Positions 12,301-25,186 of a DNA stretch of 64,000 nt are shown in pieces (within the stretch, counting starts at the first letter, position 1; every line of letters begins with the position of its first letter). The position numbers were made by a program, and so were the translations under genes. This DNA comes from Casimicrobiaceae bacterium (GTDB taxonomy: Bacteria > Pseudomonadota > Gammaproteobacteria > Burkholderiales > Casimicrobiaceae): NCBI GenBank assembly GCA_035308425.1, contig DATGGP010000015.1, positions 23,521 to 87,520 on the forward strand, given 5' to 3'. The notes beneath the pieces were generated by a model. The model saw only the letters and a program-made list of their open reading frames with translations, ran no database searches and was not told the DNA's origin.

Positions 12301-12682
12301 CTTCGAGGGCGAGCCATCGCGTCCGCTGGCCGAGCGAACGCGCAAGCAGTCGCCGCTGAAGGATGTTGCCGGCATGCTGCGCTCGTTCGACTATGCGGTG
12401 CACGCCGCCCTCATGGATCTCGCGAGCGAGCGTGGCGACGTGCGCGAGCGCGTCGAGGAAGCGGCGCGCCAATGGCGCGCGCAGGCGATAGGCGCTTTCA
12501 TCGACGGCTACGACGAGATCGCACGCGCGGGCGGGCTCGCATCACCGCGCGGTGAGGCGTCGGGACTCCTCGAGCTCTTCGTGCTCGAGAAAGCGGTGTA
12601 CGAGCTTCACTACGAAAGCGAGAACCGGCCCGATTGGCTCGCGATCCCGCTTCGCGGGCTCCTCGGCGTTCTCGGGTCGTGA
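9353..12682 (+). CDS. treS: Trehalose synthase-maltokinase fusion (TreS-Mak)
   Basis: 1109 aa. N-terminal GH13 TreS ([30 protein letters not shown]) and C-terminal maltokinase ([29 protein letters not shown]). TTG start. Confidence 0.95.
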
Positions 12683-12755
12683 TCGCGGTTCTGATCGGTC
12701 ATGTTTGAGAGGCGGAGGGCGGTTCGCCCGTTCGCCATCGTGCTGGGAGAACGTC

Positions 12756-13466
12756 ATGGATAACGTGAACATGCTGGTCGAGCCGATCCGCGAATCGCTG
12801 CATCAGATCGGCGCTTTCCTGCCGCGGCTACTCCTCGCGATCGTCGTGCTCCTCATCGGCTGGCTGATCGCGAAGCTCGTCCGCTTCGCGATCGTCAAGG
12901 CGCTGTACGCGATCAACTTCAACGTCGTCACGGAGAAGGCGGGCGTCGATCGCTTTCTCGCGCAGGGCGGCGCCGAGATCGATACGATCCGCGTGCTCGG
13001 TGGCCTCTTCTACTGGCTCGTGATCCTCGCCGCGCTGATGATCGCGTTCAATACGCTCGATCTCGCGTACGTGACGGACCTGCTCGGCCGGATCGTGCTG
13101 TTCGTGCCGCGCGTGATGGTCGCCGTCGTGATCCTCGTTTTCGGCGCGTACTTCGCCCGTTTCGTCGCGACGGCCCTTTCGACCTATCTTCGCAACATCG
13201 GCGCGCGCGAGGCGGGTCTCATGGGGCGCTTCGCGCTCTACGCGATCATGGTGTTCGTCGTCATGATCGCGCTCGATCAGCTCGGCCTCGGCGACATCAT
13301 CCGCGAGACGTTCCTCGTGCTCGTCGCGGCGATCGCGCTCGCGCTCGCGCTCGCCTTCGGCCTCGGCGGACAAAGGCGCGCGGCGGACCTGCTGGAGCGC
13401 TGGTCGCGCCACGAGATCGACGAGACGCGCGACGCGCGGCCGCGCAGCAAGTCATCCGTGCTGTGA
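12756..13466 (+). CDS. CmpX-like / conserved TM-helix membrane protein (MscS-associated TM repeat, no cytoplasmic MscS domain)
   Basis: 236 aa; two FLPRLLLAIVVLLIGWLIAK / FVPRVMVAVVILVFG repeats and a C-terminal ALAFGLGG motif. GGGAG RBS before ATG 12756. Confidence 0.8.
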   Translation: MDNVNMLVEPIRESLHQIGAFLPRLLLAIVVLLIGWLIAKLVRFAIVKALYAINFNVVTEKAGVDRFLAQGGAEIDTIRVLGGLFYWLVILAALMIAFNTLDLAYVTDLLGRIVLFVPRVMVAVVILVFGAYFARFVATALSTYLRNIGAREAGLMGRFALYAIMVFVVMIALDQLGLGDIIRETFLVLVAAIALALALAFGLGGQRRAADLLERWSRHEIDETRDARPRSKSSVL

Positions 13467-13539: not shown

Positions 13540-15665
<2,126 letters not shown>

Positions 15666-15669
<4 letters not shown>

Positions 15670-17492
15670 AGCGATGTCACGTGATGCCTTTCGGCGCGAC
15701 GTACGCAAGGGAGGCGACGGCGTTCCGGTTGTGGGCGCCGGGCGCCGCGCGCGTCGACCTGATGCTCGACGCCGATGGCGCTTCGCGCGAGCTTACGATG
15801 CAGCGCGCCGGCGATGGCTTTTACGAGCGAAGCGTCGAAGGCATCGCGCTCGGCGCGCGTTACGCATTTCGCATCGACGAACGCAACACCGTTCCGGATC
15901 CCGCGTCGCGCGGGAATCCCGACGGCGTGCACGCGCCGAGCATGGTCGTCGATCCGGCGAGCTACGACTGGCGCGATCGCGCGTGGCGAGGACGGCCATG
16001 GCCGGAGGCCGTCGTCTACGAGCTGCACGTCGGAACGTTCACGCCTGCCGGGACGTTCGCGGCCGCGATCGAGCATCTCGATGCGCTCGTCGATCTCGGC
16101 GTCACCGCGGTCGAGCTGATGCCGCTGGCGGCGTTCGGCGGTACGCGAAACTGGGGCTACGACGGCGTGCTGCCGTTCGCGCCTGCGGCAAGCTACGGCA
16201 CGCCCGACGATCTCAAGCGCCTCGTCGACGCCGCGCATGCGCGCGGCTTGATGATGCTTGTCGACGTCGTCTACAACCATTTCGGTCCCGACGGCAATTA
16301 CCTGCACCTCTACGCGCCGCAATTCTTCAACCCCCGGCATCGGACGCCGTGGGGCGCGGCGATCAACTTCGATGCCGAGGGGAGCGGCACGGTGCGCGAC
16401 TTTTTCATTCACAATGCGCTTTACTGGCTCGAGGAGTTCCACTTCGACGGGTTGCGGCTCGATGCGGTGGACACGATCGCCGACGACTCGCGTCCCGATT
16501 TCGTGACCGAGATCGCGACACGCGTTCGCGAATGGGCGGGCGAACGCGATGTCCACCTCGTCCTCGAGAACGACCGCAACGAGGCGCGCTATCTTCGGCG
16601 GGACGAACGCGGCCGGCCGATCCTCGCGACGGCGCAATGGAACGACGATGTCCATCACGCGCTGCACGTGATCGCGACCGGCGAGCGCGAAGCCTATTAC
16701 GCCGATTACGAGGCGCAACCGGTTCAGTCCTTGGCGCGCGCGCTCGCCGAGGGCTTCGTCTACCAGGGGCAGCCGTCGCTGTATCGTGAAGGCCGGCCTC
16801 GCGGCGAGCGAAGCGGCGACCTGCCGCCCGACGTTTTCGTATCGTTCGCGCAGGACCACGACCAAGTGGGCAATCGTGCGTTCGGCGAGCGTCTCGTGTC
16901 CCTCGCCGATCACGAGCGGCTGCGCGCCCTCGTGGCCTGCATCCTTCTCTCCCCGCAGGTGCCAATGCTGTTCATGGGCGAGGAGTTCGGCGCGACGACG
17001 CCGTTCCTGTTCTTCTGCGATTTCGAGGGCGATCTCGCGAAGGCGGTCACCGAAGGTCGGCGACAGATGTTCGCGTGCTTTGCGCGCTTTCGCGATCGTT
17101 CCGAGCGGGAGTCGATTCCAGATCCGAATGCGCTTTCGACGTTCACGGCAAGCAAGCTTGACTGGGGCGAAGCGACATCGGCGCACGGCGAACACTGGCG
17201 ACATTTCTATCGTCGCTGCCTGACGATCCGGCATCGCCACATCGTGCCGCTCCTTCGCCGGATGTCACGTGGCGGAACGTTCGATGTCGACGACGATGCG
17301 CTGATCCGCGTCACATGGCCGGCCGGCGATGCGCGATTGCATCTCGTCGCGAATCTGTCGTCCGGCGCATCGATCGAGACGCCGATGCCGCCGGGCGAGT
17401 CGATCTTCGCGAGCGATGCGATGCCCGAGCCCGGAGTGGCGGGCGGGGTCCCGCGTTACGGCGTCGCGTTCGTCGTCGAAGGTCGAGTATGA
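15666..17492 (+). CDS. treZ: Malto-oligosyltrehalose trehalohydrolase
   Basis: 608 aa; YELHVGTFT, NWGYDGV, DVVYNHFGPDGNY, DGLRLDAV and QDHDQVGNRAFGER motifs. GTGA overlap with glgX. Confidence 0.95.
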
Positions 17493-19677
17493 ACACGCTG
17501 CTGCACCGGCTGGCGCGCGCGCACGGCATCGCGCTCGAATATCGCAACGCGTGGGGCAACGTGCAGCGAATCTCCGACGGCGTGCTGCGCGCGGTCCTCG
17601 CCGCGATGCATGTCGATATCGCGACCGAGGAGGCGATTGCACGCGCGCTCGACGCGCTCGACTTCGCGCGATGCGGGCAATGCCTGCCGCCGATGAGCGT
17701 GGTTCGGAAAGCCTCGCGTCCCTGGCGCATCGAAGTGAACCTGCCGCTGCGCTATGCCTCGCAGGCGCTCGCGTGGCGCGTGATCGCCGAGGACGCCGGC
17801 GAATATCGTTTCGCGATTCCCGATGCCGAGTTGCGCATCGCGACGGCGTCCAGCGGACCTTGCATCAAGGTTCGTCTTTCGCTCGATGCGCCGCTTTCGA
17901 TCGGCTATCACACGATCGAGCTTGTCGCGAACGGCGTCACGATCGCGCATGGCATGCTGGCCGTTGCGCCCACCAAATGCCATCGACCGGCGGCGCTACG
18001 CAATGGCGGCCGTACGTGGGGTGTCGCCGTGCAGCTTTACGGCGTTCGCTCGGCACGCAACTTCGGCATGGGTGATTTCACCGATCTCGCCAATCTTGTC
18101 GGCCGCGTCGGCGCCGAGGGCGCCGACGTCGTCGGCGTCAATCCTCTGCACGCGCTCTTTCCGCACAACCCGACGCATGCGAGCCCGTACAGCCCGTCGA
18201 GCCGCATGTTCGTCAACGTCTTCTATCTCGACGTGGAGGCAATTGCCGAATTCGCGCGTTGCGCGCATGCGCGCGAGCGTGTCAACTCATCGACGTTCCG
18301 CTCGGCGCTTGCGAAGGTTCGCGCAGCGCCGCTCGTCGATTACGCGGGCGTCGCGGCGTTGAAGATGCCGCTGCTCGAATTGCTCTACGTCCAGGCAAGG
18401 GGGGATGCGCGCTCGGGCGCCACGTCGCGCTGGTTGGAGTTCGATGCGTACAAGACGGCTGGTGGCGAGGCGTTGCGCCGCCAGGCGCTGTTCGACGCGC
18501 TGCAGGCGCACTTCCATGCGCGCGATCCGGCGATCTGGGGATGGCCGGTGTGGCCCTCCGATTATCGCGACCCGGCATCGCGTGCCGTTCGCGCATTCGC
18601 CGACGAGCATGGCGAGCGCGTCGGTTTCTTCGCATGGCTGCAATGGCAGGCGGATCTGCAGCGTGAGTCCATCGCAACGCGCGCGCGACAATCGGGGCTC
18701 GCGATCGGCCTCTACACCGACCTCGCCGTGTCGATCGATCGCGGCGGTGCGGAAGCGTGGGCGAATCAAGCGCTGTACGCGGTCCGCGCGAGCGTCGGCG
18801 CGCCGCCCGACATCTTCAACGTTCGCGGCCAGGACTGGGGCCTGCCGCCGATGATTCCGACGCGGCTTCGCGATGCCGGCTACGCGCCGTTCATCGCGAC
18901 GCTGCGCGCGAACATGCGCGCTTCGGGCGCGCTGCGCATCGATCATGTGATGGGGCTCATGCGTCTCTACTGGGTGCCGTCCGGCGCGACGCCCGCCGAC
19001 GGCGCGTACGTCCACTATCCGCTCGACGATCTCGCGGGCCTGCTCGCGCTCGAAAGCGAGCGCCACCGCTGTCTCGTGATCGGCGAGGATCTCGGCACCG
19101 TGCCCGACGAGGTGCGCATCGCGCTCGCGTCGAATGACCTGCTCTCGTACCGCGTGCTGCTCTTCGAGCGAAACGAGCAAGGCGAATTCAATCCGCCATC
19201 CGCGTATCCGGAAGCGGCGCTCGCCACCGCAAGCACACACGACCTGCCCACGCTTGCCGGCTGGTGGGAAGGCCATGACATTGCGCTTCGCGCGGCACAC
19301 GGCCATCTTGGCGCGAATGCCAATCTTGAATCCGCGATGGCGGAGCGCATTCGTGACCGCGGCCAACTGCTCGCGGCGCTTGTGCGTGAAGGCTTGCTGC
19401 CCGAGGGCACGCCGCTCGATCCGAACGCGGTCCCGACGCTCACGCTGGCGCTCGCCGCCGCGCTGCAGGCGTATCTGGCGCGAACGCCGTGCGCGCTGTT
19501 CGTCGTGCAGCCGGAAGACGTGTTCGGCGCGATCGAGCAGGCGAACCTGCCCGGCACGACGACCGAGCATCCGAACTGGCGACGCAAGTTGCCCGTTTCG
19601 CTCGATGACATGGCAACGGACGGACGGCTGCACGCGCTCGCCGCCCGCATCGCCACCGAACGTTCACGCGCGACGCC

Positions 19678-19681
<4 letters not shown>
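17489..19681 (+). CDS. malQ: 4-alpha-glucanotransferase (amylomaltase)
   Basis: GH77 motifs SPYSPSSR, GAPPD..N..GQDWGLPP, LRIDHVMGL, IGEDLGTVP, STHDLPT and HPNWRRKL. ATGA overlap with treZ. Confidence 0.95.
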
Positions 19682-22608
<2,927 letters not shown>

Positions 22609-22614
22609 CGCGCG

Positions 22615-23691
22615 ATGGCGACGCTGCGTTGGCTCGTCGTGCTCGTGCCGATCGCGCTCGGCGTTCGCTACCTGCTCGATGTCGCACCGATCGTCACGTT
22701 CGTCGTCGCGATCATCGCCATCGTTCCGCTCGCCGACTGGATTCGCCGCGCGACCGAGCAGATCTCGCGGCGAACCGGCTCGGCGATCGGGGGGTTGCTG
22801 AACGCGACGTTCGGCAATACCGCGGAGCTCGTGCTCGCGATCTTCGTACTGTTCGCAGGACACGCTACAGTCGTCAAGGCGCAGATCACCGGATCGATCA
22901 TCGGCAACGGCCTTCTCGGGTTCGGCCTCGCGATCGTCGCCGGCACGTGGGGGCGGCGCGAACTTCGCTTCAACCGCGAGCGCGCGGGATTGCTTGCGAG
23001 CCTGCTCGTGCTGGTCGTGATTGCACTCCTGGTGCCGGCGCTTTTCCACTACACCGAGCATGCGGTGCTCGCGGCGGCCGAAACCGAAGCGCTCGACGAC
23101 AAGCTGTCGATCTGCGTCGCGATCGTGCTGATCGTCGTCTATGCGGCGAACCTGGTCTACACGCTCGTCACGCATCGCGACGTGTTCGCGCTCGACGAAG
23201 CGCCCGACGACGAAGGTGCCACGTGGTCGCTCGCGCGCGCGGTCGTCGTGCTCGTCGCCGCGACCGCGGGGACCGCCGTCATGGCCGAGCTCGTCTCCGC
23301 TGCGCTCGTATCGGCCGCGAACGCGATCGGCGTGTCGACGTTCTTTCTCGGCGTGGTCGTGCTCGCCGTCGTCGGCAATGCCGCCGAATACTTCTCGTCG
23401 ATTTACTTCGCGCGGCAGTCGCGGATGGGCCTCGTTGCGACCATTACCCTCGGATCGACGATCCAGGTCGGTTTGCTCGTCGCACCGATCCTGGTGCTCG
23501 CGTCGCACCTGACCTCCCATCCGATGAGCCTCGTTTTCGACAACCCGCTCGAGCTCGTCGCGATCGCGAGCGTCGCGTTCGTCGTCAACGCGATCACGCG
23601 CGACGGCGAAGCGACGTGGTTCGAGGGCGTGCTGCTGATCGGCGTCTACGCGCTGCTGGCGTTCGCCTTCTTTTTCGCGACGCCTTTATAA
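22615..23691 (+). CDS. Ca2+/H+ antiporter (CAX/ChaA family)
   Basis: 358 aa, multiple TM helices; alpha-repeat motifs LNATFGNTAEL and VGNAAEY; GSIIGN. Confidence 0.92.
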   Translation: MATLRWLVVLVPIALGVRYLLDVAPIVTFVVAIIAIVPLADWIRRATEQISRRTGSAIGGLLNATFGNTAELVLAIFVLFAGHATVVKAQITGSIIGNGLLGFGLAIVAGTWGRRELRFNRERAGLLASLLVLVVIALLVPALFHYTEHAVLAAAETEALDDKLSICVAIVLIVVYAANLVYTLVTHRDVFALDEAPDDEGATWSLARAVVVLVAATAGTAVMAELVSAALVSAANAIGVSTFFLGVVVLAVVGNAAEYFSSIYFARQSRMGLVATITLGSTIQVGLLVAPILVLASHLTSHPMSLVFDNPLELVAIASVAFVVNAITRDGEATWFEGVLLIGVYALLAFAFFFATPL

Positions 23692-23698
23692 CCGACGA

Positions 23699-23726
23699 TG
23701 AACCCGCACGCGCCGCGCGGGTCACA
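23699..23726 (+). promoter_or_regulatory. Possible ECF-sigma promoter (TGAACC-N16-GTCACA) upstream of the metallothionein-like gene
   Basis: Resembles RpoE-type -35/-10 elements; about 35 nt before the RBS-bearing start. Confidence 0.3.
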
Positions 23727-23761
23727 ACGGATGCGGATCAACCGAGCACGAGGAGGAAATC

Positions 23762-23956
23762 ATGGCCAATGCACCAGGCAAATGCGCGCACGCGGCGTGT
23801 CGCTGCGACGTCCAGCCGGGCCAGAGGTATTGCAGCACGTCGTGCGCGCAGCAGGCGCAGCAGCAGGGAGGATCGAGCCGGCAGCAGGGCCAGCAGCAAT
23901 CGGCGTCGGGGGCGTCGCATTGCAACTGCGACCACCCGAGCTGCCAGCACGGCTGA
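23762..23956 (+). CDS. Bacterial metallothionein-like Cys/His-rich protein with Gln-rich linker
   Basis: 64 aa, strong GAGGAGG RBS. CAHAACRC...YCSTSC...HCNCDHPSC (8 Cys, 4 His) matches the proteobacterial BmtA-like pattern. Confidence 0.8.
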   Translation: MANAPGKCAHAACRCDVQPGQRYCSTSCAQQAQQQGGSSRQQGQQQSASGASHCNCDHPSCQHG

Positions 23957-23967
23957 CGCAACTCGCG

Positions 23968-24402
23968 CTACCGCCCCGCTTCGACGAACTCCCACGGCGA
24001 TTTGCCGTGGTGATGGCGGTAGTAGTGATCGTGCAGCGTGGCGAGCTCACTCGCGATCGCGAGCGGAAAGCCTTTGCGGCCGCCGCGACGATCGGTCATC
24101 AGATCGTCGAGAAAGCGCTCGCATTTGACCGGATCGCTCCAAAGCTTCGCGATCCGGTTGGCAAGCCGTCCGTAGCGAAGCGCGAGCTGGCGCGGACGCA
24201 CCGACTCCGGCAACTCCGCCATCCACGCATTCGCCTCGTCGGAAAGCGGCTCGGGCGGCGTCGACGTGCGCTTTTCTTCCCAGTTCTCCGGCGACTTCCG
24301 CACCGCATACGCGGCAGGACCGGTTTCGTCGAGCGCCTTGCGCGCTTCGGTCAAGGAAACTTTTTCGAACTCAAGCGAGCCTGAATCGCCAGAACCCGGC
24401 AT
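23968..24402 (-). CDS. Conserved hypothetical protein (LPxxVRP..L...RLANRIA.LW.DP...DDL..DRRGGR.GFP family)
   Basis: 144 aa; AGGAG RBS before ATG 24402. Motif recalled from uncharacterised betaproteobacterial proteins. Confidence 0.75.
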   Translation of the reverse strand: MPGSGDSGSLEFEKVSLTEARKALDETGPAAYAVRKSPENWEEKRTSTPPEPLSDEANAWMAELPESVRPRQLALRYGRLANRIAKLWSDPVKCERFLDDLMTDRRGGRKGFPLAIASELATLHDHYYRHHHGKSPWEFVEAGR

Positions 24403-24618
24403 GACCGCTCTCCTCTCGCGCTTGCGGGTGACTGCAGCCCGATGCGCCGTGTAGCCCACATCATGCGTGCCTCGGCGACTCGTAAGGCGTCCTGTCGCCG
24501 GACCGCATCACCCTCGCGTCCATCGTAATGACGATGGGCGCTTCGCGCACGACCGCGCGTCGTGGCGGCGTGCTTTCACCGACGAACGGCGCAGCGTGCA
24601 CGCAACATGCGCTGAATG

Positions 24619-24649: not shown

Positions 24650-24670
24650 CCTGTGCGGGAAAGCGCGACG

Positions 24671-24874
24671 TCAGACCGCCTGGATGTTCGAGGCTTGCTT
24701 GCCCTTCGGACCTTGCGTCACCTCGAAGCTGACCTTCTGGCCTTCCTTGAGCGTTTTGAAGCCCTGCATGTTGATCGCCGAGAAGTGAGCGAACAGATCC
24801 TCGCCCCCGCCATCGGGAGTGATGAATCCGAAGCCCTTCGCGTCGTTGAACCACTTCACAGTTCCGGTTGCCAT
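24671..24874 (-). CDS. cspA: Cold-shock protein (CspA family)
   Basis: 67 aa; [12 protein letters not shown] (RNP1) and LFAHFSAI (RNP2). Exact paralogue name uncertain. Confidence 0.95.
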
Positions 24875-25024
24875 GTTCTCTTTGATTCCTCAAGTACGAG
24901 AAGTAAACGGGACGTTGCCCGGCCGATGTTTCGATCTCAAGGAAAGTACGGCGGTCGAACGACTGCGTGGCGGTCGTACAGAGCGTGCCTTTACTGCCTG
25001 GAACAAAACACGGCGCGCACTATA
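24875..25024 (-). promoter_or_regulatory. Putative -10 element (TATAGT, 25019-25024) and ~140-nt 5' UTR of csp
   Basis: TATAGT followed by a GC-rich discriminator on the minus strand; no good -35. Long leaders are typical of csp genes. Confidence 0.35.
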
Positions 25025-25186
25025 CGTCAGATTTTCCAAAAAAGCGACAACTTTCCGGCGGGCGGCGCGGTTAAGTGTTGCGCGGAAAGCCACGCCAGAC
25101 GCGGGATTCCGCGCGCCGGCCGGCCGGGCCGGCGAGGCGCGTTAAGCACGCTCTGAAACAACTCCCTCCGTGGCGCGCCGGCCGCC

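Follow-up and report, generated by a model that had tools for sequence, protein, structure and literature searches.

We analyzed a 64,000-nucleotide (nt) stretch, hereafter the window, from contig DATGGP010000015.1 (positions 23,521 to 87,520, forward strand) of assembly GCA_035308425.1, a metagenome-assembled genome (MAG) of a soil bacterium of the family Casimicrobiaceae (Burkholderiales), with attention to one short gene at window positions 23762..23956 on the + strand. This open reading frame (ORF) comprises 64 codons, and its translation, MANAPGKCAHAACRCDVQPGQRYCSTSCAQQAQQQGGSSRQQGQQQSASGASHCNCDHPSCQHG, is a Cys/His-rich protein of 64 amino acids (aa) with 8 Cys and 5 His, which was assigned to an unnamed SmtA-like family by its homologues. 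The translation is identical to that quoted in a first-pass annotation, which had placed a metallothionein (MT)-like microprotein with a strong ribosome-binding site at positions 23699 to 23956; the end of that interval was correct, but the true start lies at 23762, 63 nt downstream of 23699, which falls within the intergenic leader. The ribosome-binding site is indeed strong, with the Shine-Dalgarno sequence GAGGAGG (23750..23756, + strand) read from the sequence 5 nt before the ATG. The G+C content at third codon positions (GC3) was 0.83 in the frame of the gene versus 0.61 to 0.64 in the other two frames, with values of 0.87 and 0.81 in the upstream genes cax and treY, and the 64-aa ORF is a real gene. 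A 228-aa ORF that starts from an out-of-frame ATG at 23698 was rejected as spurious since it runs antisense through a conserved opposite-strand gene, an artifact that we attributed to the 66% G+C content of the genome.

The protein consists of two ligand-bearing segments and a spacer, all encoded on the + strand. The N-terminal segment (residues 7 to 29; 23780..23848) reads K-C8-A-H10-A-A-C13-R-C15-D-V17...Y23-C24-S-T-S-C28-A29 and is the predicted treble-clef zinc-finger core, the spacer (residues 29 to 52; 23846..23917) is the Q/G/S-rich sequence AQQAQQQGGSSRQQGQQQSASGAS, which corresponds to the hypervariable loop of the family, and the C-terminal ligand segment (residues 53 to 63; 23918..23950) reads H53-C54-N-C56-D-H58-P-S-C61-Q-H63. 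Thus, the three motifs that had been annotated (C8-x-H10-x2-C13-x-C15, Y23-C24-S-x2-C28, and H53-C54-x-C56-x-H58-x2-C61) were all present, as was the 24-aa Gln/Gly/Ser spacer.

Extent and conserved pattern of the family

Searches of Pfam, NCBIfam, and the PDB with the query alone returned nothing useful, and a word-indexed homologue search recovered no match other than the query itself, owing to the Q-rich loop and the short length of the protein. Among 185,579 species genomes, only one close match was found, a 95%-identical copy in another Casimicrobiaceae MAG (the sister genome) that retained the same order of treY, cax, and the MT-like gene. The two copies differed by four synonymous and four nonsynonymous changes, which left the family-invariant residues untouched and included the replacement of H53 by Arg in the sister genome. 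The family came into view through two weak six-frame matches within the same genus (L004 and L012), used as seeds, which shared the Cys/His skeleton of the query and had different loops. A search with the small seed alignment retrieved 102 clusters at 90% identity, and a 49-sequence profile searched against 1.84 billion proteins retrieved 1,856 representatives at 50% identity with E values of ≤0.001, including 66 with E values of ≤1e-10. All naming sources listed the family members as "hypothetical protein," and none carried a precomputed Pfam domain. The gene had been described as easily missed by annotation pipelines; gene callers do catch it, and the protein and its relatives are public under that uninformative name.

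The distribution of the family was patchy. Members were detected in 30 of 151 Casimicrobiaceae genomes, representing 3 of 12 genera, and in 8 of 401 Burkholderiales genomes, while none was found in 300 further genomes sampled across the phylum; most members came from soil-type metagenomes. At the DNA level, nearly all homologues checked had an ATG led by a Shine-Dalgarno sequence just 5' of the motif. The CGAGGAGGA core of the Shine-Dalgarno sequence was kept in both the sister genome and contig L032, whose copy is 56% identical to the query and is the closest one outside the sister genome, and an alignment of the upstream regions of these two and the window revealed nothing conserved beyond that sequence.

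The family pattern was K-C-A-H-x-x-C-x-C-x-V-x5-[YF]-C-S-D-Y-C-(loop)-C-x-C-G-H-x-x-C, in which C8, C13, C15, C24, S25, C28, C54, C56, H58, and C61 (query numbering) were invariant across the sequences analyzed. Position 10 was His in 228 of 240 sequences (95%), 222 of the 240 proteins had exactly eight Cys, the hairpin length was constant in 233, and position 23 was Tyr or Phe in 239, while Ala at position 29 occurred in 63; the query has both Y23 and A29. Two of the five His residues of the query lay outside the conserved set, with His at the nonconserved position 53 in only 13 of 240 relatives and at position 63 in 37. Mean column identity was 33%, and Cys, His, Tyr, and Ser accounted for nearly all of this. 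Moreover, a 132-aa protein from a JGI metagenome (P0103) carried the entire Cys8His2 domain twice in tandem, both copies complete, and since this arrangement occurs and some loops measure only 8 aa, the N- and C-terminal Cys segments are, as judged from sequence comparison, one autonomous unit.

The segment between C28 and C54 was hypervariable, ranging from 8 to 30 aa with a median of 14 aa in 225 sequences, without a Cys in any of them. The 25-aa loop of the query is among the longest, and the corresponding loop of SmtA has about 10 aa, in agreement with the earlier remark that the linker is longer than usual. Most loops were acidic, with a mean Asp-plus-Glu fraction of 0.22 versus 0 in the query. 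Q-rich loops (≥30% Gln) were found in about 10 of the 225 sequences, including a Casimicrobiaceae entry and several metagenome proteins, and also in L057; this subgroup shares the N- and C-terminal flavor of the query. The DNA encoding the spacer contains weak GCAGCAG/GCGCAGCAG tandem repeats, a pattern in keeping with expansion by slippage. In our view, the spacer is most readily understood as a loop that is extruded and tolerated, and not as a tether between lobes.

AlphaFold2 models, built without metal ions, were of medium confidence. The model of the query had a mean predicted local distance difference test (pLDDT) score of 68.6 and a confident N-terminal core at 83 to 86; it predicted strand contacts at residues 7 and 16 and placed the start of the helix at residue 26, right after C24. 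The first seven residues of the spacer were predicted to prolong the helix and the remainder to be disordered, with pLDDT below 50 at residues 46 to 51. A 49-aa relative with a short loop was modeled with a mean pLDDT of 71.1.

Relationship to SmtA/BmtA and Pseudomonas metallothioneins

When the family profile was compared with 177,635 distinct PDB sequences at an E value of ≤10, the only entries returned were Synechococcus SmtA (1JJD) and the MT of Pseudomonas fluorescens Q2-87 (PflQ2 MT; 6GV6, 6GV7, and 6GRV), the similarity to the Pseudomonas protein being weak (E values of 1.2 to 4.7). An hhalign comparison of the family with a BmtA alignment, composed of SmtA, nine cyanobacterial homologues bearing PF02069 (Metallothio_Pro), and a Pseudomonas fragment, gave a probability of 95.9%, an E value of 5.4e-9, and a score of 45.5 over 44 columns. 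Column shuffling, used as a control for an artifact of cysteine composition, yielded a score of 21.0 for the best of 100 shuffled BmtA alignments, and the reversed alignment scored 13.2. Judged by these profile comparisons, the family is demonstrably homologous to SmtA/BmtA, although it lies outside PF02069 by the curated test, and the label MT-like given at first sight was borne out in the sense of an SmtA/BmtA-type protein.

The N-terminal segment of the family was aligned by hhalign to the SmtA sequence KCACEPCLCNV...YCSEACA, and 9 of the 11 SmtA ligand positions fell on conserved family residues. Based on the sequence alignment and the published SmtA assignment alone (PMC3323870), SmtA C9, C11, C14, C16, C32, C36, C47, H49, and C52 correspond to query C8, H10, C13, C15, C24, C28, C56, H58, and C61, respectively. 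Two nonligand pairs, SmtA Y31 with Y23 and SmtA A37 with A29, involve residues that pack the hairpin against the helix in SmtA (PMC3323870). The site-A cysteines C9, C14, C32, and C36 form the zinc-finger site and are fully conserved in BmtAs (PMC3323870), and their equivalents C8, C13, C24, and C28 were invariant in all 49 sequences of the family profile. In total, the family conserves ten ligands (8 Cys and 2 His), compared with 9 Cys and 2 His in SmtA and 9 Cys and 1 His in PflQ2 MT.

The likeness to SmtA (1JJD, Zn4Cys9His2) extends over the opening K-C-A-x-x-x-C-x-C-x-V, the YCSxxCA helix start, and the C-G-H-x-x-C tail, and the family also agrees with SmtA/BmtA in protein size (about 55 to 65 aa). 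However, the second ligand is His in the family and Cys in SmtA, an extra invariant Cys (C54) stands two residues before the CGH motif, the SmtA His40 falls in the variable loop, the position of SmtA Cys54 is variable and occupied by His63 in the query, and the loop measures 8 to 30 aa, versus about 10 aa in SmtA. No smtB-type regulator lies near the query gene. With the Pseudomonas MTs (PflQ2 MT and PmtA), the family shares ten conserved ligands, a proteobacterial host, the lack of a dedicated metal regulator, and the tolerance of a disordered, variable nonligand segment, which is a C-terminal tail in those proteins and an internal loop in the query. Unlike the family, the Pseudomonas proteins pass PF02069 and carry CxCxxCxC and CxxxxCxC patterns. 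The first-pass annotation had considered the query pattern to be that of proteobacterial MTs; the pattern of those proteins is CxCxxCxC, whereas CxHxxCxC belongs to the unnamed family and to MymT of Mycobacterium tuberculosis.

Considering these correspondences, we regard it as probable, though well short of certain, that the query is a small cytosolic metal-cluster protein and a divergent member of the SmtA/BmtA superfamily. The N-terminal segment would form a treble-clef zinc finger of the SmtA type, in which C8, C13, C24, and C28 make up the structural site and Y23 and A29 provide stabilization, while H10, C15, C54, C56, H58, and C61 would complete a single polynuclear thiolate/imidazole cluster, possibly helped by H63 in the query. 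The cluster of PflQ2 MT is Zn3Cys9His or Cd4Cys9His (PMC7387436), and the metal counts reported are 3 Zn for PflQ2 MT and 4 Zn for SmtA (PMC10612145). Since the ten conserved ligands match the number in the Zn3Cys9His Pseudomonas protein, we expect each molecule to bind about three Zn(II) or as many as four Cd(II). The 24-aa Q/G/S spacer would stand in for the short His40-bearing loop of SmtA as a disordered loop pushed out of the cluster. Slippage of CAG-type repeats is its probable origin, and the protein would tolerate the spacer rather than require it.

Several observations weigh against a place in the SmtA/BmtA superfamily or against a metal-handling function. The Metallothio_Pro model, which had been proposed as a check, scored the query at only 9.6 bits (E value of 1.4) versus a cutoff of 33 bits; 35 of 49 family members matched PF02069, all below threshold, with a best E value of 0.002. 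No NCBIfam model matched the query. SmtA His40 and Cys54 have no invariant counterpart in the family, and the beta-hairpin is 8 residues shorter than that of SmtA. Foldseek comparisons of both AlphaFold2 models with the PDB returned no significant match and did not recover 1JJD or 6GV6, a null result that is uninformative for a fold of 50 to 60 residues that forms only around metal ions. In the 70-nt leader between cax and the query gene, neither a terminator nor a sigma-70-like promoter was detected, and no Zur box or AT-rich Zur-type palindrome was visible. Moreover, metal regulators (ArsR/SmtB, MerR/CadR, or Zur-type) and metal pumps were absent from all nine neighborhoods examined. As for the genomes themselves, no canonical BmtA (PF02069 above cutoff) was found in 41 related genomes.

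Genomic context and regulation

Upstream of the query gene and on the same strand lies cax, encoding a Ca2+/H+ exchanger (22615..23691, +; TIGR00378, 2.4e-85; PF01699), with 70 nt between its stop codon and the ATG. It is preceded by a complete block of glgX-like, treZ, malQ, and treY genes for the production of trehalose from alpha-glucan (13540-22608, +), so that the glucan/trehalose-Ca2+ antiporter cluster was found where it had been annotated. This block runs straight into cax, with junctions that overlap or measure 7 nt, and a gene for a mechanosensitive-channel-like protein stands ahead of it (12552-13466). The block from glgX-like to cax looks like an osmotic or desiccation-stress operon. 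Downstream, the 3' boundary of the query gene is set by a convergent gene for a conserved hypothetical protein of 163 aa (23968..24459, −), which had no Pfam or NCBIfam match and which also adjoins the MT-like gene in the sister genome (L002; 87% identity) and in L032 (72%). It is followed by a gene for a CspA-type cold-shock protein of 67 aa (24671-24874, −) and by a MetE-like gene, the third opposite-strand gene downstream. A 167-aa ORF on the + strand (24653-25156) overlies the cold-shock gene and is spurious.

Outside the window, adjacency of cax and the MT-like gene was found only in the sister genome, and no cax homologue occurred within 1.5 kb of the family member in any of the 29 other Casimicrobiaceae loci. 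In L032, the genes for the 163-aa protein, the cold-shock protein, the MetE-like protein, a 2-hydroxyacid dehydrogenase, and a MalK-like ABC ATPase were kept downstream, and upstream of the MT-like gene lay 425 nt of intergenic DNA and a divergent DUF1571 gene. Because L032 retains the downstream genes but not cax, the query gene is assigned by synteny to the downstream neighborhood, which the trehalose/cax block would have joined recently. On the same grounds, cax was rejected as a functional partner, and the coregulation with the trehalose and cax genes that had been suggested for the query is not a conserved feature. Nonetheless, transcriptional read-through from cax is possible in the query genome, given the 70-nt gap and the lack of a terminator. 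The hairpin in the intergenic region was no better than those of shuffled sequences (z = 0.61), and Rfam gave no match on the locus.

Elsewhere, family members were found next to genes for Ku, a DNA-ligase fragment, topoisomerase IB, UDG, CHRD, HSP20, 1-Cys peroxiredoxin, a crystallin/glycine-zipper protein, a response regulator, and MlaE/F/D, and cold-shock genes also occurred among the neighbors. A DUF6496 gene (PF20106) stood directly beside the MT-like gene in nine loci (L033:4544-4990, L046:1825-2325, L049:1720-2223, L050:951-1415, and five further loci), preceding it in one lineage and following it in another, and its product may be a functional partner of the MT-like protein. In addition, a sigma-54-type GG-N10-GC (−24/−12) element was detected 50 to 86 nt before the start in 10 of 30 homologue leaders; sets of shuffled leaders averaged 1.6 and never exceeded 6. 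The elements occurred in Casimicrobiaceae loci L046 to L051 and L054 and in metagenome contigs L035 and L073, with TGGCAAGCTTCTTGCT, CGGAACGTTTTTTGCT, and GGGCCCGTGAGTTGCA as examples; the leader of the query gene in the window has no such element.

PflQ2 MT is induced in stationary phase and aids survival of long-term starvation, and it is dispensable for metal resistance (PMC7387436); such a stationary-phase and long-term survival role (PMC7387436) fits the stress-type neighborhoods of the family. Since both these neighborhoods and the absence of metal regulators recall the Pseudomonas MT, the query protein may serve, by analogy, in zinc buffering or storage or in thiol protection during stationary phase, stress, or dormancy, rather than in metal resistance.

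Alternative readings and significance of the family

The alternative that survives best, though we hold it to be unlikely, is a single-zinc SmtA-like finger of the GatA type, or another treble-clef adaptor, which would bind a protein or nucleic-acid partner without storing metal and in which the extra Cys and His residues would form a second small structural site or act in redox sensing. Blindauer et al., in a 2002 study cited in PMC10119931 (ref. 55), reportedly described an SmtA-like single-zinc finger of this kind, that of E. coli GatA. The N-terminal YCSxxC treble-clef pattern is indeed common to many non-MT fingers, weak matches were obtained to DUF2116 "probable treble clef" (6 of 49 members) and to Zf_WRKY19 (9 of 49), and zf-HIT was the top, nonsignificant Foldseek match. 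The want of metal-homeostasis neighbors, the recurrence of DUF6496 as a partner-like neighbor in nine loci, and the sigma-54-like promoters before some relatives, which suggest a regulated, specific role, point the same way. However, while fingers of the E. coli GatA type share site A of the treble clef together with its aromatic packing, they lack additional cluster ligands, and the query family keeps six more (H10, C15, C54, C56, H58, and C61) that are invariant or nearly so in about 240 sequences and sit at the cluster-ligand positions of SmtA. Moreover, outside the ligand columns the family lacks any conserved surface of basic or hydrophobic character, which argues against a partner-binding adaptor.

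A Cu(I)-binding MT of the MymT kind, acting in copper buffering or detoxification rather than with zinc, is quite improbable in our view. MymT of M. tuberculosis (53 aa) is a Cu(I)-binding, copper-induced protein, and its sequence, confirmed by exact look-up, opens with TCSHEGCGCRV, the same C-x-H-x2-C-x-C-x-V pattern as in the family; hhalign aligned the two over 21 columns with a probability of 55% and an E value of 1.2e-4, and CxC and CxH motifs generally suit trigonal or digonal coordination of Cu(I). This similarity ended after 21 residues, however, and everything beyond residue 29 was different, since MymT has neither the YCSxxC helix nor the CxCGHxxC tail, both of which align with BmtA in the family. 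The alignment extended neither to the full length of the proteins nor to the CHC and CTC motifs in the C-terminal half of MymT, and CsoR, CopA, CopZ, and other copper genes occurred in no neighborhood examined. MymT therefore shares a motif with the family but not the domain.

The interpretation offered in the first-pass annotation, a two-lobed MT with independent N- and C-terminal sites on a Q-rich tether, coupled to and coregulated with the trehalose/cax operon and with a linker that drives condensation, appears very unlikely. It agrees with the position of the gene 70 nt beyond cax in the same orientation, with no terminator or significant hairpin between them, with the preservation of this arrangement in the sister genome, and with the length and predicted disorder of the spacer. 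Yet most relatives have loops of 8 to 14 aa, too short for independent lobes, and homology to SmtA suggests that both segments close round one cluster with the spacer looped out. None of the 29 other Casimicrobiaceae loci showed linkage to cax, and in L032 only the downstream genes are retained. Q-rich loops are confined to about 10 of 225 sequences, most loops being acidic. Condensation by the linker, the hypervariable part of the family, is pure speculation. Finally, that the ORF arose by chance in GC-rich DNA has almost no probability and is effectively refuted by the conservation data, because, even though long spurious ORFs are common at 66% G+C and several overlap the locus on both strands, the gene combines a strong Shine-Dalgarno sequence and an in-frame GC3 of 0.83 with hundreds of homologues that have invariant Cys/His columns and Shine-Dalgarno-led ATGs of their own.

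The query is best classed as a long-loop, Q-rich member of a large unannotated sister family of bacterial MTs, in which the Q-rich spacer and the cax neighborhood are probably local accidents and incidental. To our knowledge, bacterial MTs are considered rare, and the characterized families are SmtA/BmtA and MymT only. We tentatively suggest, as a possibility that we would not yet rate as likely, that the present family constitutes a third large branch of bacterial MTs, of which the query would be the first member to be noticed, with about 1,800 clusters at 50% identity, a Cys8His2 ligand set, a short hairpin, and a hypervariable extruded loop, occurring mostly in soil metagenomes and patchily in Burkholderiales. 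If this is true, such a branch, combining the CxHxxCxCxV opening of MymT with a BmtA-like core and tail, would tie both known MT families to one ancestral treble-clef, and the sigma-54-type promoters and the pairing with DUF6496 in some lineages would point to a regulated function in stress or dormancy, not in detoxification. The family itself is a more useful result than the Q-rich spacer or the cax neighborhood. Its natural loop variants, from 8 to 30 aa, would offer material for studying how far a metal cluster tolerates insertions, and a family of this size, still "hypothetical" to Pfam and NCBIfam, would enlarge the known MT repertoire and supply a new annotation model.

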